From Rhodospirillales bacterium (GTDB taxonomy: Bacteria > Pseudomonadota > Alphaproteobacteria > Rhodospirillales > Shumkoniaceae), in assembly GCA_014859895.1 (NCBI GenBank), contig JACZKS010000147.1, positions 68,642-132,641 of the forward strand: a stretch of DNA of 64,000 nucleotides. Reading direction: 5' to 3'. Under the pieces are notes generated by a model. That model had not been told where the DNA came from, did not search any database, and saw nothing but the letters and a program-made list of their open reading frames with translations. Positions 215-16,577 of the stretch are shown here, in pieces; position 1 is the stretch's first letter, and every line of letters begins with the position of its first letter. The translations under genes were made by a program, and so were the position numbers.

Positions 215-1132
215 TCAGCCCCGCGGGAAATGTTCCCGCCAGTGGCGCGCGATGTCGACGCGCCGGGCCACCCATACCTTGTCGTGCGAAAGGACGTAAT
301 CGACGAACCGCTTGAGCGCCTGGAAGCGGGCCGGCTTGCCGATCAGCCGGCAATGCAGGCCAACCGACATCATGCGCGGCTTTTCGGCGCCCTCCTCGTA
401 GAGGATATCGAAGGCGTCCTTCATGTAGGTGAAATACTGCTCGCCGCTGTTGAACCCTTGGATCGCGGCGAACTTCATGTCGTTGGTGTCCAGCGTATAG
501 GGCACCACCAGGTGCGGCTTTTCCACCACCCGGCTCCAGAACGGCAGGTCATCGGAATAGTCGTCGGCGTCATAGAGGAAGCCGCCTTCCTCGGCGACCA
601 GCACGCGGGTGTTCTCGCTGGTGCGCCCGGTGTACCAGCCGAGCGGCCGTTCGCCGGTGATGCGTTTCTGGATCTCGATGGCAAGCCGCATGTGCTCGCG
701 CTCCTGCTCGATCGGCATCCCGTGATAGTTGATCCAGCGATAGCCGTGCGAGCAGATCTCGTGGCCGTCCTTGAGCACGACCTCGGCGACCAGCGGGTTG
801 CGCTCCAGCGCCATGGCGATGCCGAAGACCGTGATCGGCAGCCGCCGCTCGCGGAACAGCTTCAGCACCCGCCAGACGCCGGCCCGGCTGCCGTATTCGT
901 AGAGCGATTCCATGCTCATGTGGCGGGCGCCGACAAACGGCACCGCGCCGACCATTTCCGACAGGAAGGTTTCCGAGGCAGCGTCACCATGCAGCACGCA
1001 GTTCTCGCCGCCCTCTTCGTAGTTGAGCACGAACTGCACCGCGATGCGGGCGTCGCCAGGCCATTTCGCATGCGGCACGTCCGGGCCGTAGCCGGTCATG
1101 TCGCGTGGGTAATCGGTCGTCATGGTGGTCAT
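215..1132 (-). CDS. puuE: Allantoinase PuuE (polysaccharide deacetylase fold)
   Basis: YPRDMTGYG, WPGDARIAVQFVLNYEEGGENCVLHGD, ESLYEYGSRAG and MMSVGLHCRLIGKPAR signatures; purine catabolism context. Confidence 0.92.
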   Translation of the reverse strand: MTTMTTDYPRDMTGYGPDVPHAKWPGDARIAVQFVLNYEEGGENCVLHGDAASETFLSEMVGAVPFVGARHMSMESLYEYGSRAGVWRVLKLFRERRLPITVFGIAMALERNPLVAEVVLKDGHEICSHGYRWINYHGMPIEQEREHMRLAIEIQKRITGERPLGWYTGRTSENTRVLVAEEGGFLYDADDYSDDLPFWSRVVEKPHLVVPYTLDTNDMKFAAIQGFNSGEQYFTYMKDAFDILYEEGAEKPRMMSVGLHCRLIGKPARFQALKRFVDYVLSHDKVWVARRVDIARHWREHFPRG

Positions 1133-1281
1133 TCCGATGCCTTTCTTCTTGCTTATTGCGCGGGCGCTCCACGCCCGCCCGCCTGATCAGAACATTCCTC
1201 GGAATATTCCGGCCCCAGGCCCGGCCGGCCCCGAAAAGGACCCGGCGCGCGGGAATTCGCCCGCGCGCCGGTCCGTCGTCG

Positions 1282-2736
1282 TCAGTCGTCGGCGCGAACC
1301 GCCAACGGGCTGGTGCTCATCAGACCGTAGTAGAACACGGCGCCCAGGAAGGCTCCGATCACCCAGCCGTAGCCGGAGAGGAAGCTCAGGGCCGGCACCC
1401 ATTCCGTCGAGATGGAGAAGACAGCGGCCGCCCCGAAAGCGATCAGCGCCCGCTGGTTCCAGCCGTTGAGATAGTAGTACTTGCTGCCCGGCTCCGAGGA
1501 GAACAGTTGCTGAATGTCCAGCTTCTGCTTCTTCACCAGGTAGTAGTCGCAGATCATGATCCCGTAGACCGGGGCGAGGATGGCACCCAGCGTGTTGACG
1601 AAGCCGGCGATGCCGATGTTGCTGATCACCGAGACCCACAGCGCACCGACGAAGAAGGCGGCAATCGAGGTGATCAACCCGCCCATCCGGAAATTGATCT
1701 TGCTGGGCATCAGGTTGGCCAGGTCGTAGGCCGGCGGCACGAAGTTGGCCACCACGTTGATGCCCACCGTCGCCGCGAAGAAGGTGACGGCGGCGATGAC
1801 GGTCAGCGCCAGGTTGTCGACCCGCTCGACGATGTCGGCGGGATTGGTCAGGCGCTCGCCGAACAGCACGACGGTACCGGCGGTGACGAAGAGCGCGATG
1901 AACGAGAAGAAGGCGACGTTGAGCGGCAGGCCGAGCAGGTTGCCGATCTTCATCTCCCTCTCGCTGCGCACGAAGCGCGAGAAGTCGCCGAAGTTGATGA
2001 CCACGGCCGCGAAGTAGGCGATCATCGTGCCGGTAATGCCGAGGAAAGCGGCCACAGGACCGCCGGCGTAGGTGCCGGAACCGCTGAAGATGTTGCCGAC
2101 TTCAGACAGCAGGCTGCCGCCCGCCATGTACCAGATGATCCCCATGAGAATGAGCATCACCACGTAGACGAAGGGGCCGGCCCAGTTGAGGAAATGGCGG
2201 ATCGTCTCGATACCCCGCCAGAAGAGGAAGAGCTGGAACAGCCACACGACGATGAAGGAGAACCAGCCGACCGCGGTCATGCCCAGGAATTGCGCGCCGC
2301 CGCCGGTGCCGAACAGCGCGTTGATCAAAATGGCCAACGCGGTGGAGGCAAAGTAGGTCTGCACACCGTACCAGAAGATGGCGACGATGGCCCGGACCAT
2401 GGCCGGGAAGTTGGCGCCGCGCACGCCCATGCTGACGCGGGCCATCACCGGGTAGGGAATGCCGTAGCGCACGCTGGGCTGGCCCGACAGATTGACCAGC
2501 ACCATGATGATGAAGCCGGCCAGGATGATCGCCGCCATCACCGCCCAGCCGTTCAGGCCGTAGGTGATGAACAGCGAGGCTGCCAGGGTGTAACCGAACA
2601 GGCTCTGGATGTCGTTCGACCACACGTTGAAAATTTCAAACCATCCCCACGACCGCTTTGTGTGCGGAATGGGAGCCAGATCCGCGTTGTACAACGTCGG
2701 ATCGATTTTCTTGATCTCAAGATCGCGAGTATCCAT
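1282..2736 (-). CDS. NCS1 family nucleobase:cation symporter (allantoin/uracil-type)
   Basis: LYNADLAP, PSVRYGIPYPV, WYGVQTY and GINVVANFV motifs; about 12 hydrophobic segments. Confidence 0.9.
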   Translation of the reverse strand: MDTRDLEIKKIDPTLYNADLAPIPHTKRSWGWFEIFNVWSNDIQSLFGYTLAASLFITYGLNGWAVMAAIILAGFIIMVLVNLSGQPSVRYGIPYPVMARVSMGVRGANFPAMVRAIVAIFWYGVQTYFASTALAILINALFGTGGGAQFLGMTAVGWFSFIVVWLFQLFLFWRGIETIRHFLNWAGPFVYVVMLILMGIIWYMAGGSLLSEVGNIFSGSGTYAGGPVAAFLGITGTMIAYFAAVVINFGDFSRFVRSEREMKIGNLLGLPLNVAFFSFIALFVTAGTVVLFGERLTNPADIVERVDNLALTVIAAVTFFAATVGINVVANFVPPAYDLANLMPSKINFRMGGLITSIAAFFVGALWVSVISNIGIAGFVNTLGAILAPVYGIMICDYYLVKKQKLDIQQLFSSEPGSKYYYLNGWNQRALIAFGAAAVFSISTEWVPALSFLSGYGWVIGAFLGAVFYYGLMSTSPLAVRADD

Positions 2737-4390: not shown

Positions 4391-5101
4391 TCATGGTGCC
4401 TTCTCCTTGGCGCGTGGTGTGGCGTAGGCGCCGACCTTGCTGGTTTTGAGCCCGGCGCCGAGGAGCGCCTCGACCATCTTGACGGCGATGGCGACGCCGT
4501 CGATCACGGGGATCTTCGTCTCGGCGCTCAGCCAAGCGGTCAGGTCGGTCATGCCGGCGCAGCCGAGGATGACGGCCTCGCAGCGGTCCTCGCGCACGGC
4601 CCTGAGGATCTCGTCGCGGATGACCTCGCGGGCCCGCCCGCCCTTCTCTTCCAAGGCCAGCACCGGCAGGTCGGAGGCCCGCACTTTCCGGCAACGCCGC
4701 TCCATCCCGTACTTGACCGCCAAGTCCTCGATGATGGGAACCGAGCGCGACAGAGTGGTGACCACCGAGAAACTGGAGGACACCATCGAGGCCGCGTGCA
4801 TGGCCGCCTCGCAGATGCCGAGCACCGGGCCGTTGGCCACCTCCCGGCAGGCATCGAGCCCAGTGTCGTCAAAGCAGGCGACGACATAGCCGTCGCACCC
4901 GTCGGCTTCGCCTTTGCGGATCTCGGCCAGGAGGCCGGGCACCGCCAGAGCGCCGTCGGTGTGGCCCTCGATGCTGGCCGGGCTATCCTTGGGATTGGTG
5001 GCGACGATTTCGGTCCCCGGCGCCGCCAGCGCCTCGGCGCAGCGCCGGATCTTGTCGGTCATCGAGGCGGTCGAGTTGGGGTTGACGATCTTGATCTTCA
5101 T
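4391..5101 (-). CDS. Asp/Glu/hydantoin racemase (probable allantoin racemase)
   Basis: IVNPNSTASMT, ACFDDTG and ILGCAGM catalytic Cys motifs. Confidence 0.88.
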   Translation of the reverse strand: MKIKIVNPNSTASMTDKIRRCAEALAAPGTEIVATNPKDSPASIEGHTDGALAVPGLLAEIRKGEADGCDGYVVACFDDTGLDACREVANGPVLGICEAAMHAASMVSSSFSVVTTLSRSVPIIEDLAVKYGMERRCRKVRASDLPVLALEEKGGRAREVIRDEILRAVREDRCEAVILGCAGMTDLTAWLSAETKIPVIDGVAIAVKMVEALLGAGLKTSKVGAYATPRAKEKAP

Positions 5102-5122: not shown

Positions 5123-5839
5123 CTAGAGTTCGCCGCCCAGGTAGAGCTTCTGGATACGGGGATCGGTGCGCAGCTCGGCCGAGATGCCCTCGATGGCGAT
5201 CTCGCCGGTGGAGAAGGCATAGGCCCGGTGCGAGATGGCCAACGCCATGCGCGAGTTCTGTTCGACCAGAATCACCGAGACGCCGTGGTCGCGGTTGATG
5301 GCGACGATCGAGCGGGCGATGTCCTGGACCAGCTTGGGCGCGATGCCGAGCGACGGCTCGTCGAGCAGCAGCAACCGCGGCGCCGCCATCAGCGCCCGCC
5401 CGATGACCAGCATCTGCTGCTCGCCGCCGCTGAGCGTGCCGGCAGCCTGGGAATAGCGCTCCTTGAGCCGCGGGAAGCGGGCGAGCACGCCTTCGAGGTC
5501 GGCGGCGATGGCCCTCTTGTCGCTGCGCGTGAAGGCCCCCATCAGCAGGTTGTCCTTGACCGACATGAAGGGGAAGACGCGCCGACCCTCGGGGACCATG
5601 GCCACGCCCTTGCGCACGATCTGGTCGGGCGGAAGGTGATCGAGGCGGGTGCCGTCGAACCAGATCTCGCCCTCGGTGAGCTTCTTGAGGCCGGTGATGG
5701 CGCGCAGCGTCGACGACTTGCCGGCCCCGTTGGCGCCGATCAGGGCGATGGTCTCGCCTTCCTCCATGGAGATGGAGACGTTGCGGACGGCGCGGACGCG
5801 ATCGTAATTGAGGTTGATGTTCTTGACTTCGAAGTACAT
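5123..5839 (-). CDS. Branched-chain amino acid-type ABC transporter ATP-binding subunit (LivF-like)
   Basis: GANGAGKS Walker A, LSGGEQQ signature, LLLDEPSLG. Confidence 0.92.
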   Translation of the reverse strand: MYFEVKNINLNYDRVRAVRNVSISMEEGETIALIGANGAGKSSTLRAITGLKKLTEGEIWFDGTRLDHLPPDQIVRKGVAMVPEGRRVFPFMSVKDNLLMGAFTRSDKRAIAADLEGVLARFPRLKERYSQAAGTLSGGEQQMLVIGRALMAAPRLLLLDEPSLGIAPKLVQDIARSIVAINRDHGVSVILVEQNSRMALAISHRAYAFSTGEIAIEGISAELRTDPRIQKLYLGGEL

Positions 5840-5842
5840 GGC

Positions 5843-6622
5843 TCAGATCCCGATCTCTTGGTCTTCGCGCCCGAGATAGGCCTCAATCACACGCTCGTTG
5901 CTTTGTATTTCCGCCGGCGTTCCCTCGGCGATCATCTGGCCGAAGTTGAGCACGACGATGCGGTCGCTGATCTTCATGACCGCCTTCATGTCGTGCTCGA
6001 CCAGAAGGATGGTGATGCCGCGGTCGCGCACACCACGCACCATCTCGACCGCCTTCATGGTCTCGTCGTGGTTCATGCCGGCGAAGGGTTCGTCGAGCAG
6101 CAGCACCTGCGGCTTGGCGGCCAGACCGATGGCAATGCCGAGCGCCCGCAGATAACCGTGTGGCAGGTTGCGCGCCACTTCGTTCTGGACGTGGCCGAGC
6201 CCGAGATACTCGAGGATCTCGGCCGCCGACTCGTGGAAGTCGATCTCGTCGCGGCGGGCCGTCAGTGTACCGGCGTAGTGGCCGAGCAGGCTGGCCTTGC
6301 TTTGCAGGTGGTGGGCGACGACGACGTTCTGACGGGCCGTCATGTCCTTGAAGATGGTGGTTTCCTGGAATGTCCGCACAACGCCCTTGCGGGCGACGAT
6401 GTGCGGCGCCAGGCCGGAGATACGCTCGCCGTTGAACCGGACCTCGCCGTGGGTCGGCCGCAGGAACGACGAGATGAGCTTGAACAAGGTGGATTTACCG
6501 GCCCCGTTCGGCCCGATAACGGACAGGATCTCCTTGTCGTTCACCTTGAAAGAGGCATCGCCGACCGCGGTCAGGCCGCCGAATTTCTTGGTCAGGCCGT
6601 TGATTTCCAGGAGCGCAGTCAT
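5843..6622 (-). CDS. ABC transporter ATP-binding subunit (LivG-like)
   Basis: GPNGAGKS, LPHG signature variant, LLLDEPFAG, EAYLG C-terminal motif. Confidence 0.92.
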   Translation of the reverse strand: MTALLEINGLTKKFGGLTAVGDASFKVNDKEILSVIGPNGAGKSTLFKLISSFLRPTHGEVRFNGERISGLAPHIVARKGVVRTFQETTIFKDMTARQNVVVAHHLQSKASLLGHYAGTLTARRDEIDFHESAAEILEYLGLGHVQNEVARNLPHGYLRALGIAIGLAAKPQVLLLDEPFAGMNHDETMKAVEMVRGVRDRGITILLVEHDMKAVMKISDRIVVLNFGQMIAEGTPAEIQSNERVIEAYLGREDQEIGI

Positions 6623-7599
6623 TTATCGGCCTCCCGCTTGTTGAACAGGGGAAGGCTCAGGATGCCGTTGGGCAGGGTGACGATGAGCATGATCAGGATC
6701 GCCGAGTAGATCAGCAATTGGAACCTGCCGGTCGTGAACAGCAGATCCCACCCGAAGTAGATCATCAACGTACCGAGCATCGGCCCGAAGACGTAACCAA
6801 GGCCGCCCAGGAAGCAGTTGAGCATGAAGTCCACGGAGTCCTTCACCGGGAAGCTTGCCGGATAGATGGACCGTGAAATCGCGACGAAAATCGCGCCCGA
6901 GATCCCACCGAGAAACGACGAGATGGCAAAGGCGATGACCCGCAGATAGGCAATGTTGACGCCGATCGACGAAGCCAGTTCTTCGTTCTGCTGCAGCGAA
7001 CGGCAGAGATGGCCGACCCGTGAATTCACCAGGCGATAGAGCCCGGCAAAGCTGACGACCATCAAGACGGTGGCCAGATAGTAAAAGGCCAGCTTCACGT
7101 TCCCTATGGTCGAAAAGTCGGGGATGATCGTCAGCCCGAAGATGGAGAGCTCGCCGGGCAGCGGGATCGACGAGATACCGCGGGCGCCGTTGGTAATCGG
7201 CAGTGCCAGGGCGGCCAGCCGGGCGACCTCGGTCAGGACCAGCGTGATCATCGCGAAGTAGACGCCCCGCAGGCGCAGGATGGGCAGGCCGATCAGCACC
7301 GCCAGGAGGGCACAAAACAACCCGGAAAGCGGGATGGTCACCCAGAACGAAAAACCATACTTGGTGACCAGGATGGCGGACACGTAGCCGCCGGCCAAAG
7401 CGAAGGCACCCTGGCCGATGTTGATGCGGCCGATATAGAAGGTCAGCCAGACGCCGCCGCTGGCGATCGACAGCAGCGCCACCGAAGTGAGGGTATAATA
7501 GAAGTCCCAGCGGCCGGACACATGGATCAGCCAGGGGACGACCGCGAACACGGTCAGCAGGAACGCTCCCACCGCCACAAGTTGGCTTCTTGTTATCAT
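6619..7599 (-). CDS. ABC transporter permease (LivM-like)
   Basis: LRLRGVYFAMITL motif; multiple TM helices; operon position. Confidence 0.9.
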   Translation of the reverse strand: MITRSQLVAVGAFLLTVFAVVPWLIHVSGRWDFYYTLTSVALLSIASGGVWLTFYIGRINIGQGAFALAGGYVSAILVTKYGFSFWVTIPLSGLFCALLAVLIGLPILRLRGVYFAMITLVLTEVARLAALALPITNGARGISSIPLPGELSIFGLTIIPDFSTIGNVKLAFYYLATVLMVVSFAGLYRLVNSRVGHLCRSLQQNEELASSIGVNIAYLRVIAFAISSFLGGISGAIFVAISRSIYPASFPVKDSVDFMLNCFLGGLGYVFGPMLGTLMIYFGWDLLFTTGRFQLLIYSAILIMLIVTLPNGILSLPLFNKREADK

Positions 7600-7606
7600 C
7601 TTCCGG

Positions 7607-8479
7607 TCAACCCCAGGGTTTGCCCATCAGCCCTTGCGGGCGGATGGCCAGGAACACCATCAAGGATGCGAAAATCACGAGGTAGGTGATGTCGCCGTAG
7701 GCGGCCAGCACCGTAAGGCCGACGGATTCCAGCATGCCAAGGATGAAACCGCCGGCGATGGCGCCGGAAATCACGCCGGCGCCGCCGATCATCACCATCA
7801 TGAAGGCCTTGATCGAGGTGGGTCCGCCCATGCCGAGGTTGATGCCGGTGACGGTGACCAGCAAGCCGCCGACCACGCCCGCCAGCATCGCGCCCAGGGC
7901 AAATCCGATAATCGAGTAGCGGTCGACGTCGACGCCCATGAGCTGGGCGGCAACCTTGTCCTGCGCCAGTGCGCGCATGGCCCGGCCGGTCTTCGAATAC
8001 TGCATGTAGAGGATGAACGCCGCGATCGCCAGGATCGCCAGGACCCCGACCAGGATCTTATCGTAGGGCATCACGATGGTGTAATCGTTGTAGTTGAAGA
8101 TACCGTTGACGATCTTCGGCACACCGCGCTGCTTCTCGCCGAACAGCAGGAGCACAACGGCATCGAGCAAGAAGGCAAGACCCGCGGCGAGAAGCATGGT
8201 GCTTTCTTCGCGCACGGACTTGCGGATCACCGGCCCGAACAGGAACTTCTGAACCAGAGCGCCGATGATCGCGAGCGTCACCCCGGAGGCCGCCACCCCG
8301 ACAACGAAAGGTAGGCCCAGTTGCGCATAGACGGTGTAGGTGACGAACCCGCCAATCACGTACATCTGCCCGTGCGCGAAGTTCAGCACGTTCATCAGGG
8401 CGAAAATCAGGGTCAGCCCCAGGGCGATCAGCGCGTATTGCGCGCCCAGGTACAAACCGTTGGCAATGATCTGTTCCAT
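7607..8479 (-). CDS. ABC transporter permease (LivH-like)
   Basis: ALIALGLTLIF...LNFAHG and TGRAMRALAQD motifs. Confidence 0.92.
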   Translation of the reverse strand: MEQIIANGLYLGAQYALIALGLTLIFALMNVLNFAHGQMYVIGGFVTYTVYAQLGLPFVVGVAASGVTLAIIGALVQKFLFGPVIRKSVREESTMLLAAGLAFLLDAVVLLLFGEKQRGVPKIVNGIFNYNDYTIVMPYDKILVGVLAILAIAAFILYMQYSKTGRAMRALAQDKVAAQLMGVDVDRYSIIGFALGAMLAGVVGGLLVTVTGINLGMGGPTSIKAFMMVMIGGAGVISGAIAGGFILGMLESVGLTVLAAYGDITYLVIFASLMVFLAIRPQGLMGKPWG

Positions 8480-8555
8480 TAAGCAAGTCCAGGCTTGAAG
8501 GGCTCAGGACTTAAAATGGTCCCGAGCCCCTCATGAGACATGGGCCGTCCGTCGA

Positions 8556-9755
8556 TCAGTCGACTTCGGCGATGAACAGCGTTTCGAACTTGCCGTTCCT
8601 GTACTCGTTCACGACCATCGGAACCGAAACCTGACGCTTCTGGCCGAACGAGGTCATGCCGACGTACTTCAGTTTGGCGCCGCCTTTCATGAAGATGTTC
8701 TCGGCCGCCAGCGTCTCCATGGTCTTTTTGAACTCCTCGACATTGTCGATCGCCTTCGGATTGGCCTTCAGGGTTTCGAAAATGTATTCGAGCGCGTAGA
8801 CCTTGGTGTTCGACTCGTCATTGTATTCGCCGAACATCTTGGTGTAGCGGGCGACGAATTCGCGCATGGCGTCGGTCGCGATCTCCGGCGTCGAGGCGCC
8901 GCCCACCGAGATGAAGCCGTTGGCGAGGTCGCCGGCGCCTTCCTTGATGACCGCGGCATCCTGCGCCGTTTCGGCCGAGATTAGGCCCTTGTAGCCGAGT
9001 TCACGAGCCGCGCGGATGAGCTGCGGGGTGTTGGCCGGCGCTGCGCCGGACAGGACCAGCAGGTCGGGTTGCGTACGCACGACCGGCGTCAGGACCGGCG
9101 TGAAGTCGGTGGTGTCGACCTGGTAGGTGATGTTGTCGGAAACCACTGTCAGGCCGAGGGCCTTGGCGGCCGCAACGCCGCTTTCGCGCTGGCTGAGCGG
9201 ATCGGACTCGTTGGCGCAGACGAAAGCGACCTTTTTGACGCCCTTCTTGTCCTGCAGGTACTTGTAGATCGCCGGGCCGGACTGGTAGTTGGCGACCATG
9301 CCGAGGACGGCGTTCGAGGCCGGCTTCACATAGAGCGACTTCGGGAAGGCGTAAGGGAAATAGATGATGTTGTTCTGCTCGGCGACCGGGCGGACGGCGG
9401 CGGCGCCGTCATCGACATTCGGGCCGACGACGTAGTGGATGCGTTCCTGCGCCATCTTCTCCATGCCGGCGATGGCCCGCTTGGGGTCCTTCTGGTCGTC
9501 AAAGGTGACAATCTCGACGTCGTAGGTTTTGTCGCCGATTTTGACGCCGCCGGTCTCATTGATCCAGGCGGCGCGGGTCTGCATCGAACGCACGTTCGAA
9601 ATGCCCCAGGCCGCGGCCGGGCCGCTGGTCACGCCAACAAAGCCGATCCGCAGCTTCTCGTTGGCCGCCCACGCACCCTGTGGCGCCGCCAAGCTGGCGG
9701 CCGCGGCAATGCCGGCCACCACGGCCGTCTGCACGAATATTCTCCGATTCAACAT
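8556..9755 (-). CDS. ABC transporter substrate-binding protein (LivJ/LivK-like)
   Basis: Start re-called at ATG 9755 (MLNRRIFV..., RR-containing signal peptide); IGFVGVTSGPAAAWG and DDQKDP motifs. Confidence 0.88.
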   Translation of the reverse strand: MLNRRIFVQTAVVAGIAAAASLAAPQGAWAANEKLRIGFVGVTSGPAAAWGISNVRSMQTRAAWINETGGVKIGDKTYDVEIVTFDDQKDPKRAIAGMEKMAQERIHYVVGPNVDDGAAAVRPVAEQNNIIYFPYAFPKSLYVKPASNAVLGMVANYQSGPAIYKYLQDKKGVKKVAFVCANESDPLSQRESGVAAAKALGLTVVSDNITYQVDTTDFTPVLTPVVRTQPDLLVLSGAAPANTPQLIRAARELGYKGLISAETAQDAAVIKEGAGDLANGFISVGGASTPEIATDAMREFVARYTKMFGEYNDESNTKVYALEYIFETLKANPKAIDNVEEFKKTMETLAAENIFMKGGAKLKYVGMTSFGQKRQVSVPMVVNEYRNGKFETLFIAEVD

Positions 9756-9838
9756 GGTGTTCTCCCTATTGTCATGATTGAACGTTCTTTTCCGGGTTCT
9801 TCCCGTCTTACGTCGTCTCCCGAAACGAGGGGGCGCCC

Positions 9839-10819
9839 TCACGCCTCCTTGTCGGCGACGATATGAGTTCCGGCCTCGCGCCGCAGGGCGGGCAGGGCCT
9901 CGTCGAGATGGCCGATGATGGCCCGCTTGCCGCCGCCGTCGATGAAGCGGATGGCCGCCTCGATCTTCGGACCCATGCTGCCCTCGGGGAAATGGCCCTC
10001 GGCCAGGTACTTGCGCATCTCGGAAACCGGCACCTCGTCCAACTCGCGCTGGTTGGGCTTGCCGAAGTTGATGGCCACCCGCGACACCGCCGTCAGGATC
10101 ATCATGGTGTCGATCTTGAGCACGTTGGCCATGTGGGCAGAGGTCAGGTCCTTGTCGATCACCGCCTCGACTCCTCGGCGCACGCCGCGGGCATCGCGCA
10201 CCACCGGAATGCCGCCGCCACCGCCGGCAATCACCACCGTGCCGCGGCTGGCCAGCGCCTCGACGAGGGAAATGTCGCAGATGTGCTTGGGCTTGGGCGA
10301 GGCCACCACCAGGCGCCAGCCGCGCCCGGCATCCTCGCGCATGACCCAGCCCATCTGGGCGGTCAGGTCCTTCGCTTCGGCCTCGCTGTAGAAGTAGCCG
10401 ATCGGCTTGGTGGGGTTCTTGAAGCCGGGATCGTCGGCGTCGACCTCGACCTGCGTGACCAGGCCGACCACGTGGCGCGGGTTGCCAACCTCGCGCAGCG
10501 CGTTCTCGAAGGCCTGCATCAGGATATAGGCGGTGGCGCCCTGGGTGTCGGCGACGAGGATGTCGAGGGTCATAGGCACCACCCGCTCGCGGGCCAGGAC
10601 ATTGCGCATCAGCACCTTGCCGACGGCGGGCCCGTTGCCGTGGGTGATGATCAGCTGGTTGTCGAGTTCAAGCAGAGGCAGCAGGGCACGCGCCGTGCTG
10701 GCGGCGATCGTCATCTGCTCCTCGGAGGTTCCTTTGTTGCCGGCCGGCTGAATGGCATTGCCGCCGACGGCGACCAGCAGGCGCTTGGGAAGGGTCTGAT
10801 TGGCTTTCACGTCTGTCAC
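9839..10819 (-). CDS. arcC: Carbamate kinase
   Basis: VAVGGNA, THGNGPAVG, NPTKPIG, GGGGIPV, AVIDKDL and GSMGPKIEAA motifs. Confidence 0.93.
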   Translation of the reverse strand: MTDVKANQTLPKRLLVAVGGNAIQPAGNKGTSEEQMTIAASTARALLPLLELDNQLIITHGNGPAVGKVLMRNVLARERVVPMTLDILVADTQGATAYILMQAFENALREVGNPRHVVGLVTQVEVDADDPGFKNPTKPIGYFYSEAEAKDLTAQMGWVMREDAGRGWRLVVASPKPKHICDISLVEALASRGTVVIAGGGGGIPVVRDARGVRRGVEAVIDKDLTSAHMANVLKIDTMMILTAVSRVAINFGKPNQRELDEVPVSEMRKYLAEGHFPEGSMGPKIEAAIRFIDGGGKRAIIGHLDEALPALRREAGTHIVADKEA

Positions 10820-10864
10820 TCCTCGATCAACCCGAACCCGAAATACGCACCCCGTCGACCGCCC

Positions 10865-11902
10865 TTACAGGCGGCTTCCATAGCTTTCGCCGGAACAAGC
10901 CGGAAGGCGGCCGAAGAGAGTGGAGATCTCGGCCGCATTCCGGCCCTCGGCAAGCGCCAGGGAAAGAAGAAGCGCGGACTTTTGGGGGTTGAGAAAACCC
11001 GATGCGGCGACGACGTCGGCATCCTCCCGGAGGTCCATGACCTCGGGGAAAACAGCCACTTCGCCGACCCGCGATGAAACCACGATGGCAACGCCGTCCT
11101 TCGCCATCCGGCGGGCGAGGGCAGCCATGGGGGCCGGCATGGTGCCGCCGCCGAAGCCCGCGATGACGACGCCGGGATAGCCGGCGTCGCGGCAGGCGGC
11201 CAGCGGCGCCTCGCCGCAGCCGCCGTGAACGAGCGCGATGCCGACGGCAGGCAACTCGCGCTGGCCGTCCAGGCATAAAAAGAACCGGCCGGCCAGGGGT
11301 GAGCGGCGGGGCGGTTCGAAATAGGTCAGCCGCTCGCCGGTAACCCGGCCGAGTGGCCCGCCCGGGTAGGCGCGGAACGCCTGCACCGGCAACGAGGCCG
11401 TCTTGATGGCCATCCAGCCGGGCAGTACGGTGTCGTTCATGGCCACCAGAATGCCGCGTTCGGCGGATTCGGGCGCGGCGGCCACCCGCACCGCCTGGAA
11501 CAGGTTGGCGGGGCCGTCGGCCCCCAGGGCGGTGGCCGGCCGCATGGCGGCGGTGAAGACCACCGGCTTGTCGGACTGGAGGAGAAGGTCGAGGAAGAAG
11601 GCCGCCTCCTCCAGCGTGTCGGTGCCATGCGTCACGACGACGCCGTCGACCTCGGAAGTCTCGAACGCCACCTGAACCCGCCGGGCCAGGGCCCGCCACT
11701 CGCGTGGCCCCAGGTCGCCGGACGGCTTGGCATAGAGGGTCTCGGCCTTGACTTCGGCGATGCGGTCGAGCTGGGCGATGCCGGCGATCAGCCGGGAGGC
11801 GTCGATCTGCCCCGCCTTGTAGGTGGCGGTGGTTGCCGACTCGCCGGCGCCGGCGATGGTGCCGCCGGTGCCGAGAACCAGGATCTTCGCCTTCCCCGCC
11901 AT
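10865..11902 (-). CDS. Asparaginase/glutaminase family protein (type II-like)
   Basis: GTGGTIAG and HGTDTLEE catalytic Thr motifs; LNPQKSALLL C-terminal motif. Confidence 0.88.
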   Translation of the reverse strand: MAGKAKILVLGTGGTIAGAGESATTATYKAGQIDASRLIAGIAQLDRIAEVKAETLYAKPSGDLGPREWRALARRVQVAFETSEVDGVVVTHGTDTLEEAAFFLDLLLQSDKPVVFTAAMRPATALGADGPANLFQAVRVAAAPESAERGILVAMNDTVLPGWMAIKTASLPVQAFRAYPGGPLGRVTGERLTYFEPPRRSPLAGRFFLCLDGQRELPAVGIALVHGGCGEAPLAACRDAGYPGVVIAGFGGGTMPAPMAALARRMAKDGVAIVVSSRVGEVAVFPEVMDLREDADVVAASGFLNPQKSALLLSLALAEGRNAAEISTLFGRLPACSGESYGSRL

Positions 11903-11932
11903 ATCCGCCTGCCCCTTCGGCCCGCCGCTCCG

Positions 11933-12958
11933 TCAGACCCCGACGATGTTGGCGAGCAGCGACATGCGCAGCGCAACCGAGAAGCCGATCGCCTTGAAAT
12001 AGAGCTGATGGGCGCTCTCGTCGATGGCAAAGTCGAACTCGCCCTCGTTGCGCGGCAGCGAGTGGCTGATGCCCACCGTCCTGCCGGTCTTCTTCTCGAT
12101 CTTCTGCAGGCCTTCGAGGGTGAAGTAATACTCTTGCATCTTCTTCAGGAATTCCTCGCGGCCCGGGTCGCCCTTCTTGACCGAACAGCCGGGCAGGTAG
12201 ACGAAGTCGATGCCTTTGTCGGCGATCAGTTCTTCCTGCTGGCCAATCGTCAGGTCGAAGTGCTCCTCGTAGTTCGCCTTCATGCCGTCCAGCTTGTCCT
12301 TGATCACCTTCGGCGTGCCGAGGCCGGTGGTCCCGGAGTAGATGATCTTGGCGCCCATCCGGGCGAGGCCGAGGCCGAACGACTGTCCGGACCGGGCCCG
12401 CGACAGGTCGGGAGTGGCAATCATTACGGTCATGTCGGTGAAGGGACGACCGATCGCCCGGTAGGCCGTGTACATGTCGAGCAGGCCCTGGGTCGGATGC
12501 GTTACGTTACCGTAGCCGCCGCTGATGATCGGCACGCACTTGTCGCCGAGCGCATCGATGACCTTGATCACCTCGTCGTCGGGATGGCGCAGCACGATGA
12601 CGTCGGCGTACTGCGCGGTGACGCGCAGGGCGTCATAGAGCGACTCGCCCTTGGCCGCCGACGAGCTGACCAGCGGGTTGGACTCGGTGATCACGTTGCC
12701 GCCCAGGCGATACATGGCGGTCTCGTGGCTGAACCGGGTCCGCGTGCTGGGCTGGAAGAACTGGGTGCAGAGAACCTTGCCCTCGAGCAGCGGAATACGG
12801 CCGCGATAGAAGGGCTCGAGCATCTCGGCGGTCAGGAACAGATTGGTCAGTTCCTCGCGCGACAGGTCGTCGATGAAGGTCAGGTGGCGCCCCTTGATGC
12901 CGGTGCGCTCGACCTGCTTGTAGATGTCGCGCGGTCCGAAATCCGTGGTCAGTGTCAT
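11933..12958 (-). CDS. Aspartate/ornithine carbamoyltransferase family protein with non-canonical substrate site (probable ureidoglycine-type transcarbamylase)
   Basis: FFQPSTRTR, SSAAKGES, HPTQGLLD and HSLPR carbamoyl-phosphate motifs are present. The ATCase RxQxER and OTCase SMG motifs are absent (replaced by YLPGCSVKKGD). Confidence 0.8.
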   Translation of the reverse strand: MTLTTDFGPRDIYKQVERTGIKGRHLTFIDDLSREELTNLFLTAEMLEPFYRGRIPLLEGKVLCTQFFQPSTRTRFSHETAMYRLGGNVITESNPLVSSSAAKGESLYDALRVTAQYADVIVLRHPDDEVIKVIDALGDKCVPIISGGYGNVTHPTQGLLDMYTAYRAIGRPFTDMTVMIATPDLSRARSGQSFGLGLARMGAKIIYSGTTGLGTPKVIKDKLDGMKANYEEHFDLTIGQQEELIADKGIDFVYLPGCSVKKGDPGREEFLKKMQEYYFTLEGLQKIEKKTGRTVGISHSLPRNEGEFDFAIDESAHQLYFKAIGFSVALRMSLLANIVGV

Positions 12959-13002
12959 GGCTCGTTTCTTTCCTCTAGATCAGATCAGGCGCAGGCGGCC
13001 GC

Positions 13003-13773
13003 TCAGATCGGCGCGTCGCGGTTCATGTCCTTGCTGTAGATGTACCAGTACGGCTCGCGACCGGTGGCATAGGTGGCCTGCTGGCAGAACGGGCCGAACC
13101 AGATGAAGTCTTCCTTCTTGACCTGGAGCCAGTCCTCGCCCAGCAGGTACATGCCCTGCCCGCCCAGCACATAGGCGCCGTGCTCCTGCACGTGGGTTTC
13201 GCAGAAGGGATGGCAGCCGGCAGCCAGGAACTTGAGCGTGTGCATGTTCATGTCGAAGGCCGGCTCGTAGGGCAGCAGGTCGCGGAGCAGCACGTTCTCC
13301 ATGCCGTCGTAGATCACTTCCTTGACCGAGTTGATGTCGCCGAACACGCGCCAGGGCTTGAGTTCACCCAACGGCACGAAGCGCTGCTTATAAAGTAGGA
13401 TGCGCACCGGCTTGCCCGAGGCGTTCTCGAACTCGATGCCCTCGGCGGGCGGCGCGAAGGCATAGCCGCCGGCTTTCAGCGTTTCGGTCTGACCGCCCAC
13501 CGTAACCCTGAGCGCGCCCTCGCCATCGATGACGTAGAGGAAAGTCTCGACCCCGGGGTCGGCGACGAACAGCGTCGTCGTTTTGCCGCCCGCCTCGACG
13601 GCGCCGATGTACTGCACGAAGCTGGCGCCGATCTTGGGCGAGCAGATGATGGTCAGGCGGCATCCCACGAAACCGGGGACGGAATTGATGACGCGACCTT
13701 CAGGCGGGATGACCGCGTAGCTGCCCGGTTTGATGACAGCACGCGATTCGAGAAATCCCACGGGGTACGGCAT
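13003..13773 (-). CDS. allE: (S)-ureidoglycine aminohydrolase (bicupin)
   Basis: FDMNMHTLKF, ETHVQEHGAYVLGGQGMY, WFGPFCQQ and YIYSKDMNRD motifs. Confidence 0.9.
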   Translation of the reverse strand: MPYPVGFLESRAVIKPGSYAVIPPEGRVINSVPGFVGCRLTIICSPKIGASFVQYIGAVEAGGKTTTLFVADPGVETFLYVIDGEGALRVTVGGQTETLKAGGYAFAPPAEGIEFENASGKPVRILLYKQRFVPLGELKPWRVFGDINSVKEVIYDGMENVLLRDLLPYEPAFDMNMHTLKFLAAGCHPFCETHVQEHGAYVLGGQGMYLLGEDWLQVKKEDFIWFGPFCQQATYATGREPYWYIYSKDMNRDAPI

Positions 13774-13815
13774 TCTTGTCTCCTTTCGAACGAAAAACGC
13801 TAGGGCAATCCCCGC

Positions 13816-14316
13816 CTAGCGCGGCGCGGCCAGAACCAGCGGCTCGCCGACAGTGGGCAGGGGAAAAAGATCGCAATTGGGTTCGGCGGTTCCCCGGTCG
13901 ATGACCAGGAAGCGCATGGGCGTCACCACGATGGCCGGATGGTGCCAGACACCGCGGCGGAAGTTCACGCCTTGGGCGCCGTTGGTGAAGAAAATGCGGA
14001 TATCGGCCGGATCGACCGTGTCGCCGGGCGGCGCAACGATGACGAAAAAGCGCTGGCGATCGAGCGGCACGAAGGCCTGGCTGGACAGCGGGTGACGTTC
14101 CAGTTCGCGAATTGCCAGCGGGAAGCCGAAAGGCCGGCTTTCGAAAATGCTGACCACGGGGCGGCCACCGCCTTCGGTCACGTCGATCGCCGCCAGGTCG
14201 CTGTGGCGAACCGTGGTGCCGTCGTTGATGGGTATAGGCGTGCCGCCGCCCACCTCGATGACGTCACCGAACGGCGCGAACCTGTCGCGATGCAGGGGTT
14301 CCCAAGTCAAGGACAT
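13816..14316 (-). CDS. allA: Ureidoglycolate lyase
   Basis: FAPFGDVI, LERHPLSSQAFVPL and QGVNFRRGVWHHP motifs. Confidence 0.92.
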   Translation of the reverse strand: MSLTWEPLHRDRFAPFGDVIEVGGGTPIPINDGTTVRHSDLAAIDVTEGGGRPVVSIFESRPFGFPLAIRELERHPLSSQAFVPLDRQRFFVIVAPPGDTVDPADIRIFFTNGAQGVNFRRGVWHHPAIVVTPMRFLVIDRGTAEPNCDLFPLPTVGEPLVLAAPR

Positions 14317-14400
14317 CCGACCACTCCACCCCGGAGCTCCCCGCCTTTCCCGCAGGAGGCTCTGCTTATCTTGATGGCGATAGGTCCGCCATCGATATTT

Positions 14401-14469
14401 ATCCGCTTGTCGGAAAGAATATCACCCCCCATTTTCACGGAGCAAGCGTTTTAATTCCGGTAATCGGAA
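14401..14469. promoter_or_regulatory. Two palindromic WTCCG-N5-CGGAA sites (14401-14415, 14455-14469), putative ROK regulator operators
   Basis: ATCCGCTTGTCGGAA and TTCCGGTAATCGGAA lie in the divergent allA/ROK intergenic region. Confidence 0.5.
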
Positions 14470-14475
14470 AAAATT

Positions 14476-15804
14476 GTGGATCATCGCTCAAGCCTTCGGC
14501 ACAAGACCGTTGACATCGCGCCGGAGGCCGTAAACAACAGCACGACAGGCGCCAACCGGGGGAACGCCAGGGGGATGGGCATGGACGCGCGCTTCACGGC
14601 TGACGAAATCTTCGCCGGCACCCGGGTTCGCCGGACCGATCTGGCCAAGGCGCGGATTTTCCTCTCCGTCTTCGAACGCGGCCAGGACGACCCCCATACC
14701 CGGCGCAGCCTCACCCAGGATCTCTCGCTCCGGCCGGCCACGGTTTCGGCCATGGTCGGCGAACTGATCGCGGACGGCCTGATCGCCGAAACCGACCGCA
14801 CCGCCAGCACCGGCAAGGGCCGCCCCGAGGCCTGCCTGCAGCTTCAGGCCAACCGCATGGTGACGGCGGCCATCGAGGTAACGTCCCGGACCATCCGCGG
14901 CGTCCTGGTCAACCTCAGGGGCCAGATCGTGTGCGAAGCCAGCTTGGCCATCGAAGAGGATCAGGCCGAACAGGCGAACGTGATGGCTGCCTTCAAGGCG
15001 GTCGCCAGCGACGTCCTGGCCCAATGCCCGGCCGGCGCCGGCATCGCCGGCATCGGCATCTCGCTGCCAGGAATCGTCGATGAACGGGGACTCACCTGGA
15101 TCTCGGCGGCCCGCTGGCCGCGCATGACCAACCTGGATTTCCACGGCTTGGCCAAAGAGACCGGGCATGCCGTGCGAATCGAGCGCAAGCGCCAATCCGA
15201 ATTGCGCGCCCACTTCCAGACCCACCCCGAGGAACGCAGCGGCGGCACGCTGTTCGTCAGCTGGGGTTACGGCATCAGTTCGGCCTATGCCCAGAACGGC
15301 GCGGTGCTGACCTCGACCATGGGCGGATTCGGCGACCTCGGCCATTGGCTGGTGGAACCGGAAAGCGGCCGCAAGTGCCTGTGCGGCCAGACCGGCTGTC
15401 TGGAGGCGCACGCCGCGCTGTGGGCCCTGATGCCGGAAATCCGCAAGGCCTTCCCCGACATCGGTACCCATCCGCCAACCATCCGCGCGCTGCTGCAAAG
15501 CCGAGACATTTCCCATCTGCCGCGCATCGAGCACGCCACGCGCCTGTTTGCGCTTTCGCTGCACAACCTGTTCAAGACGTTCTTTCCGGACCGCATCGTG
15601 CTGTCGGGCTATTTCCCGGAAAACCCCTGGATTTCAGAGCGGGTGCGACGGCTTTTCTTCGCCAATATGCCGCACTACGCGCAAGGTCGGGTGATCCTTG
15701 AAGTCAAGGACCCCAACGCCGACGACGCCGTCATCGGGGTCTCGACGCCGTTCTTCCAGGAAAGCCTGCGTCCCTTCCTGGTTGCCCGCGACGTCCGCAT
15801 CTAG
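14476..15804 (+). CDS. ROK family transcriptional regulator (true start may be 14581)
   Basis: N-terminal HTH (LSLRPATVSAMVGELIADGLI, GKGRP), GDLGHW and CLCGQTGCLE zinc motif. Confidence 0.9.
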   Translation: MDHRSSLRHKTVDIAPEAVNNSTTGANRGNARGMGMDARFTADEIFAGTRVRRTDLAKARIFLSVFERGQDDPHTRRSLTQDLSLRPATVSAMVGELIADGLIAETDRTASTGKGRPEACLQLQANRMVTAAIEVTSRTIRGVLVNLRGQIVCEASLAIEEDQAEQANVMAAFKAVASDVLAQCPAGAGIAGIGISLPGIVDERGLTWISAARWPRMTNLDFHGLAKETGHAVRIERKRQSELRAHFQTHPEERSGGTLFVSWGYGISSAYAQNGAVLTSTMGGFGDLGHWLVEPESGRKCLCGQTGCLEAHAALWALMPEIRKAFPDIGTHPPTIRALLQSRDISHLPRIEHATRLFALSLHNLFKTFFPDRIVLSGYFPENPWISERVRRLFFANMPHYAQGRVILEVKDPNADDAVIGVSTPFFQESLRPFLVARDVRI

Positions 15805-15861
15805 TTTTGGGGACACCATATTTAATTCCATGCGAATTAAATATGGTGTCCCCAAAACTAG
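15801..15861. repeat. Perfect 28-bp inverted repeat with 5-nt loop (REP/MITE-like palindrome)
   Basis: CTAGTTTTGGGGACACCATATTTAATTC-CATGC-GAATTAAATATGGTGTCCCCAAAACTAG, with CTAG at both ends. Confidence 0.9.
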
Positions 15862-15944
15862 GCATTCCGGCTTGCCGGCGGCACGGCTTGGTGAAATGGT
15901 GTCGCCGTTCCGGCATTCCGCCGGCCGCCGCGAGAGAACAAGCA

Positions 15945-16577
15945 ATGGACCCAATCGCCTGGCTGCAAGTCGCGTTGGTGTGCGCCATGGGTGCGGCGTC
16001 GCCCGGTCCCAGCTTGGCCGTGGTGTTGCGCAATACCCTGGCGGGCGGCAAGCGGCAAGGCGTGCTGACGGGGCTCGGCCACGGACTTGGCATCCTGCTC
16101 TATGCCGGGTTGGTGGTCACCGGACTGGCCGTGGCGCTCGCCGCCTTTCCGGCCGTCGAGGCGGCTGTCGGCTACGCCGGCATCCTGCTGCTGGTGTGGC
16201 TGGGGCTTTCCTTCATCGGCGTGCGCCTGCCGTCAGCCGGCAACGGACGCAAAGCAGCCACGTCATCGGCGGAGTCCGGCCAACACCGCAGCGGCTTCGT
16301 GGCCGGCTTTCTCATCGCCCTCCTCAATCCCAAGATCGCCGCCTTTTTCATGGCGGTGTTCGCACCCTTCATCCGCCTCGACGCCAACGGCACCGAAAAG
16401 GCCATCCTGGCCTTGACCGCTGGTATCATCGATGCCGGCTGGTACGTGCTGGTCGCCCTGGCGCTGTCGGGGACCGGGCTGATCCACGTGCTGCACCGCC
16501 ACGCTTCAGGGGTGGACCGCGCCATCGGCGCGTTGCTGCTCGTCCTCGCCGCCGGGCTCTTGTACCGCATGCTCTAA
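15945..16577 (+). CDS. LysE/RhtB family translocator
   Basis: AASPGPS and GFLIALLNPKIAAFF motifs. Start re-called at ATG 15945. Confidence 0.88.
   Translation: MDPIAWLQVALVCAMGAASPGPSLAVVLRNTLAGGKRQGVLTGLGHGLGILLYAGLVVTGLAVALAAFPAVEAAVGYAGILLLVWLGLSFIGVRLPSAGNGRKAATSSAESGQHRSGFVAGFLIALLNPKIAAFFMAVFAPFIRLDANGTEKAILALTAGIIDAGWYVLVALALSGTGLIHVLHRHASGVDRAIGALLLVLAAGLLYRML

Follow-up and report, generated by a model that had tools for sequence, protein, structure and literature searches.

A conserved ureide operon suggests ATP-yielding phosphorolysis of allantoate by an atypical transcarbamylase in a Rhodospirillales bacterium

What does a transcarbamylase do that lacks the specificity motifs of both anabolic enzymes and is encoded among genes of ureide breakdown and a carbamate kinase gene? 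The question is raised by a 64,000-nucleotide stretch of DNA, here called the window, from a Rhodospirillales bacterium of the family Shumkoniaceae (assembly GCA_014859895.1, contig JACZKS010000147.1, positions 68,642 to 132,641). Open reading frame and profile annotation placed allA, allE, the transcarbamylase gene, a gene for an asparaginase homologue and arcC next to one another on the minus strand, from 14316 to 9839, with intergenic gaps of 30-45 nt and a 4-nt overlap between arcC and the following gene. These five genes head a string of 13 minus-strand genes that continues with an ATP-binding cassette (ABC) transporter, a racemase, an amidohydrolase and an NCS1 permease. A preliminary description had reported this contiguous, co-directional arrangement, which profile matches confirmed, and had proposed that ureidoglycine or a related ureide is phosphorolysed in parallel with the hydrolytic AllE/AllA route. 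We propose instead, with moderate confidence and by analogy with an enzyme from Rubrobacter xylanophilus, that the operon encodes a mixed ureide pathway with both phosphorolytic and hydrolytic steps, in which the transcarbamylase would phosphorolyse allantoate to ureidoglycine and carbamoyl phosphate.

The transcarbamylase matched the N-terminal domain profile OTCace_N (PF02729) with 129.8 bits and the C-terminal domain profile with 20.9 bits, under the cut-off of 29.4. Regular-expression searches located STRT at residue 71, HPTQ at 154 and HSLP at 299, and found no RxQxER, SMG or HCLP in the protein, which bears out the earlier observation that the carbamoyl-phosphate motifs are kept while RxQxER and SMG are absent. 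The two-domain fold together with STRT, HPxQ and HxLP places the protein in the Asp/Orn transcarbamylase superfamily. Its structural model (predicted local distance difference test, pLDDT, 92.7) aligned with the aspartate transcarbamylase (ATCase) of P. abyssi in the complex 1ml4, bound to N-(phosphonoacetyl)-L-aspartate (PALA), with template modelling (TM) scores of 0.81/0.90, and the nearest solved sequences and folds were archaeal-type and Escherichia coli ATCases. Profile scores fell below all equivalog cut-offs for ATCase and ornithine transcarbamylase (OTCase), with 166.7 against 236.95 for TIGR00670 (ATCase) and 81 against 280.85 for TIGR00658 (OTCase).

Comparison with E. coli ATCase located the change within the active site. 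On the carbamoyl-phosphate side, S52-T55 correspond to S71-T74 of the window enzyme, S80 and K84 to S99 and K103, R105 to R124, and H134 and Q137 to H154 and Q157; R167, the arginine for the alpha-carboxylate, is kept as R189. The equivalents of all these residues, R167 included, were invariant in 64/64 family sequences. The ligands of the aspartate beta-carboxylate are replaced, R229 by G257 and Q231 by S259, along with V230 by C258, and further swaps affect E50 (Q69) and P266 (S300). These replacements are a property of the family, with G257 in all 64 sequences, S259 in 62 of the 64, and serine at position 300 in 61 and threonine in 2; within the window clade the signatures vary between HSLP and HTLP and between GCS and GSS. 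Retention of the carbamoyl-phosphate ligands and of the R167 equivalent suggests that the enzyme has not lost the ability to bind carbamoyl phosphate or an alpha-carboxylate, while the beta-carboxylate pocket is, as judged from the sequence, rebuilt. The exchange of R229 for glycine and Q231 for serine fits an acceptor that has an alpha-carboxylate and a neutral side chain instead of a beta-carboxylate, as in ureidoglycine.

A phylogeny including ureidoglycine transcarbamylases (UGTCases) had been named as a check in the preliminary description. The tree recovered the window family as a clade apart from the ATCase representatives, with 98% support in the Shimodaira-Hasegawa-like approximate likelihood-ratio test (SH-aLRT); UGTCases were represented in it by an HPLA-type stand-in only (P0251), which fell outside the window clade on a long branch. 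The genome also carries three other transcarbamylases: a pyrB beside pyrC, an argF beside argD, and a ygeW. Taken at sequence level, the window enzyme is a distinct catabolic paralogue, neither ATCase nor OTCase.

Its only assayed relative is Rxyl_2847 (UniProt Q1AS69), the UGTCase of R. xylanophilus and a member of subgroup 1 among the three 'pseudo-ATCase' subgroups described by Barba et al. in 2013 (PMC4016543). Rxyl_2847 catalyses the reversible reaction of allantoate and phosphate to ureidoglycine and carbamoyl phosphate, in which arsenate works too, and its gene sits with genes for allantoinase, carbamate kinase and an asparaginase (PMC4016543). A 2018 review lists allantoate phosphorolysis as an established catabolic transcarbamylase reaction (PMC6022934), and we found no later work on this reaction or on the role of the asparaginase in the searchable literature. 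The window enzyme resembles Rxyl_2847 as an ATCase-fold paralogue without the RxQ aspartate ligands, in the reaction proposed for it, and in its purine-cluster neighbourhood, with the asparaginase homologue and arcC directly downstream and the allantoinase gene puuE 10.8 kb away on the same strand. Rubrobacter has no AllE or AllA (PMC4016543), whereas both are encoded next to the transcarbamylase here.

In the published motif table, subgroup 1 is marked by HPLA and AIA/AIS/SIA, subgroup 2 by H[ST]LP and GX[SC], and subgroup 3 by HSLP and VXP (PMC4016543). Assigned from this table, rather than from an alignment to Rxyl_2847 or to the Nocardioides JS614 protein, the window enzyme with its HSLP and GCS carries the subgroup 2 signature. 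The subgroup 2 protein of Nocardioides sp. JS614 has a ygeW homologue adjacent to it, which in the window genome lies 11 kb away, but its context consists of ygeW, xdhABC and hyuA (PMC4016543), where that of the window enzyme is allE, allA and arcC. HSLP is shared with subgroup 3 and VXP is not. The context of subgroup 3 comprises a Na+ symporter, an asparaginase and HyuC, asparaginases accompanying subgroups 1 and 3 (PMC4016543), and it is partly matched here by the adjacent asparaginase homologue, the NCS1 symporter and a nearby HyuC-like M20 hydrolase. We read the window locus as a variant of the route known since 2013, in which another pseudo-ATCase subgroup is combined with AllE and AllA.

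How would such an enzyme fit the pathway? The genome encodes xanthine dehydrogenase (xdh), a PuuD-type urate oxidase, a fusion of 2-oxo-4-hydroxy-4-carboxy-5-ureidoimidazoline (OHCU) decarboxylase and 5-hydroxyisourate (HIU) hydrolase, PuuE and urease, which indicates that it makes allantoate and can use urea. Allantoin would probably enter through the NCS1 permease, be converted to the (S)-form by the racemase and be opened by PuuE to allantoate. The transcarbamylase would then convert allantoate and phosphate into (S)-ureidoglycine together with carbamoyl phosphate, replacing the hydrolytic AllC step. ArcC could use the carbamoyl phosphate and ADP to form ATP, NH3 and CO2, giving one ATP per allantoate. 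AllE would convert the labile ureidoglycine to ureidoglycolate and NH3, and AllA would cleave ureidoglycolate to glyoxylate and urea, the latter usable by the urease. Phosphorolysis of allantoate is unfavourable and would be pulled forward because the flanking enzymes AllE and ArcC remove its two products. A transcarbamylase at this step would close the pathway, since AllE needs ureidoglycine, and would explain the gene order.

The direction of the proposed reaction is thus the reverse of that in the preliminary description, as the UGTCase releases ureidoglycine from allantoate (PMC4016543). Given this activity of the Rubrobacter enzyme, the window transcarbamylase most likely acts in series with AllE and AllA, upstream of both and in AllC's place, and forms no parallel branch. 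The earlier reading of an ATP-yielding transcarbamylase/carbamate kinase module within a purine/allantoin cluster is supported, also by the separate pyrB and argF of the genome; the substrate and topology given there are not. Nothing in the sequence bears on the oxygen dependence that had been suggested as a possibility for the pathway.

Three known systems share parts of this scheme. AllC of E. coli (TIGR03176) likewise takes allantoate and delivers ureidoglycine to AllE, but it is a hydrolytic M20 enzyme that conserves no energy, and no equivalog-level AllC was found in the window genome. YgeW, a carbamoyltransferase that cleaves 2,3-diureidopropionate in the reductive urate pathway (bioRxiv 10.1101/2025.05.19.654654), is likewise a catabolic transcarbamylase partnered by a carbamate kinase, and it takes one of the two ureido groups off a diureido acid by phosphorolysis. 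It belongs, however, to the knotted lineage resembling N-acetylornithine transcarbamylase (AOTCase) and has another substrate, and the window genome has its own ygeW with a carbamate kinase 11 kb upstream. AllFGH with AllK/ArcC of E. coli (PMC11326118) draws the carbamoyl phosphate for ATP formation from a ureide derived from allantoin, but through unrelated proteins and at a later step, on oxalurate; AllFGH is present separately on another contig of the window genome.

The arrangement is conserved beyond this genome. Within the bacterial family the transcarbamylase was found in 4/6 other genomes, the five-gene core allA-allE-transcarbamylase-asparaginase-arcC is kept in four other genomes, and the transcarbamylase, AllE and AllA were present together in five genomes and absent together from two. 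Shumkonia mesophila, a cultured relative from the same genus, has the same operon, with WP_316979094.1 as the orthologue of the transcarbamylase. The transcarbamylase family is rare among sampled genomes of the phylum (0/400 other genomes at 1e-60). A metagenome scan with the family alignment matched mostly true ATCases, and family members were confined to seven loci (L019-L025). The gene immediately upstream of the transcarbamylase encodes an AllE homologue in six of the eight informative loci (L016, L017, L018, L020, L021 and L024), which include metagenome contigs where the transcarbamylase is 77% (L020), 58% (L021) and 44% (L024) identical to that of the window. Linkage to arcC was seen in seven loci (L016-L019 and L022-L024; in L022 and L023 arcC is 3' of the transcarbamylase gene, and L024 has it within the same cluster), and an asparaginase homologue adjoins the transcarbamylase in L016-L019. 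Racemase homologues occur in L017, L018, L020, L024 and L025. L017, L018 and L024 retain the ABC transporter along with the cluster, and it is apparently missing in genome G401, as judged from the puuE-to-transcarbamylase spacing only. Because the core recurs in four family genomes, and in part on metagenome contigs with transcarbamylases 44-77% identical, its arrangement is not due to chance.

One of the metagenome loci, the TARA contig L019 (transcarbamylase 71% identical), carries between 3829 and 18295 genes for xdh, PuuE, OHCU decarboxylase, the transcarbamylase, the asparaginase, ArcC, a class-V aminotransferase, AllG, AllF and AllH, in this order, so that an oxamate carbamoyltransferase is encoded in the cluster already. 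No AllC-like gene was present among the L019 open reading frames examined, a whole-locus search for AllC not having been run, and among these frames the transcarbamylase is the sole visible source of ureidoglycine. As a separate observation, L019, which has no AllE, represents a variant in which each allantoate could give two ATP. A further arrangement was noted in L024, where the segment from 9169 to 16398 holds an allE-like cupin, the pseudo-ATCase, a tandem transcarbamylase resembling OTCase and AOTCase, an amidohydrolase, a racemase, arcC and a CN-hydrolase, with a DAO-type flavoenzyme upstream; this cluster may carry out two phosphorolytic steps.

Several points weigh against phosphorolysis of allantoate by the window enzyme. 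The activity is assigned by analogy across subgroups, since HSLP with GCS belongs to subgroup 2 and the assayed enzyme to subgroup 1: HPLA and AIA/AIS/SIA are lacking here, and the window clade did not group with the HPLA-type stand-in. P0251 scored 118 bits against the window enzyme, lower than true ATCases at about 150; a search with P0251 returned an actinobacterial and myxobacterial HPLAR family and no Rubrobacter sequence. The scheme also leaves the conserved asparaginase homologue without a necessary role. Other sources of ureidoglycine have to be considered as well. No allantoicase match was obtained in the window genome or in four transcarbamylase-bearing relatives, in a search that had no positive control. 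In the same five genomes no M20 protein reached the AllC equivalog cut-off, the best scoring 291 against 597.75; TIGR03176 is a narrow profile, passed among 14 control genomes by E. coli alone. On the same strand, 3.7 kb past puuE and behind a TRAP transporter, lies the gene of an M20 hydrolase of the hydantoinase/carbamoylase family. Two NCBIfam subfamily models that bear the name 'allantoate amidohydrolase' match this hydrolase above their cut-offs (NF006769, 477 against 452), and it is linked to the cluster in 4/5 transcarbamylase-bearing genomes, so that a parallel hydrolytic route to ureidoglycine may run through it. The same hydrolase fails TIGR03176 (253 against 597.75), and in the PDB it matched N-carbamoyl-beta-alanine and L-amino-acid hydrolases with 340-373 bits and AllC with 198 bits. 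The hydrolase and transporter genes (G000:C10:63879-68134, the hydrolase at 63879-65138; L009 15238-19492) lie outside the window and extend the minus-strand string past puuE; DctP and DctM of the transporter were recognised by Pfam and DctQ by position only.

If such a hydrolase supplied the ureidoglycine, the transcarbamylase could phosphorolyse ureidoglycine or ureidoglycolate in parallel with AllE and AllA. The subfamily scores of the M20 protein in the same-strand supercluster speak for this, as does the adjacency of the transcarbamylase and AllE, which could compete for one substrate. We nevertheless regard it as quite improbable: the assayed homologue produces ureidoglycine and does not consume it, the acceptor amine would be a gem-diamine unstable in water, the L019 transcarbamylase occurs with an aminotransferase of a ureidoglycine-consuming type and no AllC-like gene among the frames examined, and the M20 protein is nearer to the N-carbamoyl hydrolases than to AllC. 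The substrate could instead be another N-carbamoyl amino acid that has a neutral amide side chain, such as N-carbamoyl-L-asparagine or a compound derived from hydantoin and imported by the ABC transporter; asparagine would then be released and passed to the adjacent asparaginase. Such a substrate would explain the conserved adjacency of transcarbamylase and asparaginase, seen also in subgroups 1 and 3, and fits the loss of the beta-carboxylate ligands, the amino-acid/amide-type binding protein and the hydantoin-family racemase. It is rather unlikely all the same, as no known pathway supplies such a compound, the linkage to AllE, AllA and puuE and the xdh and OHCU decarboxylase genes of L019 would go unexplained, and the ABC transporter seems dispensable in G401, to judge from gene spacing only.

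A role as oxamate transcarbamylase, which would form oxamate and carbamoyl phosphate from oxalurate and phosphate and leave oxamate to be hydrolysed by the asparaginase homologue, would represent the classical ATP-yielding step of anaerobic allantoin use and make sense of an amidase partner, and three Ldh_2 (AllD-family) genes are found elsewhere in the genome. Yet the operon has no oxalurate-forming enzyme, a separate cluster of AllF, AllG, AllH and carbamate kinase lies on another contig, and the E. coli oxamate transcarbamylase is AllFGH, with no transcarbamylase-fold protein (PMC11326118). In L019 this role would be redundant, because AllFGH adjoin the transcarbamylase there, and we hold it to be highly improbable. 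Practically no weight attaches to an ordinary anabolic ATCase or OTCase that came to lie here by accident. The database label, aspartate carbamoyltransferase, and the nearest PDB sequences and folds point that way, but the protein has lost R229/Q231 and misses the TIGR00670 cut-off expected of PyrB, has neither the SMG/HCLP motifs nor the TIGR00658 score of an OTCase, belongs to a separate clade, and shares its genome with a genuine pyrB and argF.

What, then, might the asparaginase homologue do if the transcarbamylase acts on allantoate? It keeps the equivalents of the catalytic residues T12, Y25, S58, T89, D90 and K162 and lacks a signal peptide; residues vary at the Q59 position, a small one occupies the N248 position, and the TIGR00520 score is just under cut-off. 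The homologue diverges faster than its neighbours, with 41-54% identity against 71-82% for the transcarbamylase. Glycine in place of Q59 was considered as a specificity switch and dropped, the position being G, E, Q or K among transcarbamylase-linked homologues. By our own stereochemical reasoning, (S)-ureidoglycine corresponds to an aza-analogue of asparagine with the L configuration, isosteric with L-asparagine, and the most economical guess is an amidase that acts on ureidoglycine. We suggest only tentatively, and with considerable doubt, that it is an (S)-ureidoglycine amidohydrolase ('aza-asparaginase') cleaving the ureido amide, the product of which would decay to glyoxylate, CO2 and ammonia. 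If so, the enzyme would offer a urea-free exit from the pathway beside AllE and AllA, and would explain the asparaginase genes that accompany pseudo-ATCases in several subgroups.

Allantoate phosphorolysis so far rests on one enzyme assay of 2013, in one thermophile. Should the window clade have the same activity, substrate-level phosphorylation from purine nitrogen would be more widespread than thought, and would here occur alongside an oxidative urate route. The operon supplies dedicated AllE and AllA for labile ureidoglycine, which the Rubrobacter case lacks, and this makes the whole pathway testable. The label 'aspartate carbamoyltransferase' that the family bears in many genome and metagenome records, marine ones included, amounts to a systematic annotation error.

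Table 1. Features of the ureide operon and adjoining region, with positions in the window.
Feature	Position	Strand	Profile evidence (bits) or remark
allA, ureidoglycolate lyase, 166 aa, opens the gene string	13816..14316	-	PF04115 161; NF009932 179 vs cut-off 160
allE, (S)-ureidoglycine aminohydrolase, bicupin, 256 aa	13003..13773	-	TIGR03214 (equivalog) 323.5 vs cut-off 200
Atypical ATCase-fold transcarbamylase, 341 aa; proposed allantoate:phosphate (ureidoglycine) carbamoyltransferase	11933..12958	-	Pseudo-ATCase subgroup 2 signature
Cytoplasmic type-II-like asparaginase homologue, 345 aa	10865..11902	-	PF00710 195; TIGR00520 303.5 vs cut-off 314.3
arcC, carbamate kinase, 326 aa	9839..10819	-	TIGR00746 359.9 vs cut-off 358.25 (marginal); NF009007 347.7 vs cut-off 266
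HAAT (Liv/Urt-type) ABC transporter, whole	5123..9842	-	
ABC transporter binding protein, amino-acid/amide-type	8556-9842	-	
ABC transporter permeases	7607-8479 and 6619-7599	-	
ABC transporter ATPases	5843-6622 and 5123-5839	-	
Asp/Glu/hydantoin-family racemase, probably allantoin racemase	4391..5101	-	PF01177 216.6
TRZ/ATZ / 8-oxoguanine-deaminase-like amidohydrolase, 522 aa	2801..4369	-	Every NCBIfam match below cut-off
NCS1 permease, allantoin-permease-like	1282..2736	-	NF008476 278 and TIGR00800 271, both below cut-off
Terminator-like hairpin, 12 G-C pairs, 3' of the NCS1 gene	1242..1271	-	
puuE, allantoinase, polysaccharide-deacetylase type	215..1132	-	TIGR03212 523.8 vs cut-off 424.6
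Divergent ROK-family regulator beside allA	14476..15804	+	PF00480 73.8
Inverted repeat, 9-bp stem, in the 159-nt allA/ROK intergenic region	14371..14395	.	Candidate operator for the ROK regulator

The flanks of the operon are summarised in Table 1. The transcription unit likely ends at the hairpin, and puuE follows after it, 149 nt past the NCS1 permease gene. The divergent ROK regulator is retained adjoining allA in L016-L018, in copies 54-92% identical. A sigma-70 promoter scan gave no match. Comparison of the ABC binding protein and of the TRZ/ATZ-like amidohydrolase with the PDB yielded no ligand clue, the top matches of the latter being uncharacterised amidohydrolases. This amidohydrolase has a 57% identical paralogue on another contig (C130) and is absent from the cluster of one genome (G405).

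Further modules of related function were noted elsewhere in the genome. About 11 kb upstream of the window, a segment (G000:C10:49760-58135; L009 1119-9494) encodes three PLP-dependent (PALP) enzymes, a YheO-type regulator, a YgeY-like M20 peptidase, a second carbamate kinase and YgeW (752 bits); it may correspond to the lower section of the reductive urate (2,8-dioxopurine) pathway, which was described recently, beside the oxidative PuuD route. On another contig (G000:C137:14000-26405; L099) the gene of a third carbamate kinase, which shares 77% identity with the window ArcC, precedes AllH-like and AllF (FdrA)-like genes and faces AllG; beside them are found an amidase, a GntR regulator and a TRAP transporter. 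With this third kinase beside AllF, AllG and AllH, the genome has three separate modules that would lead from carbamoyl phosphate to ATP. Diverged counterparts of three of the genes, one puuE-like (46%), one amidohydrolase-like (27%) and one racemase-like (43%), form a second set at G000:C75:10477-13525.

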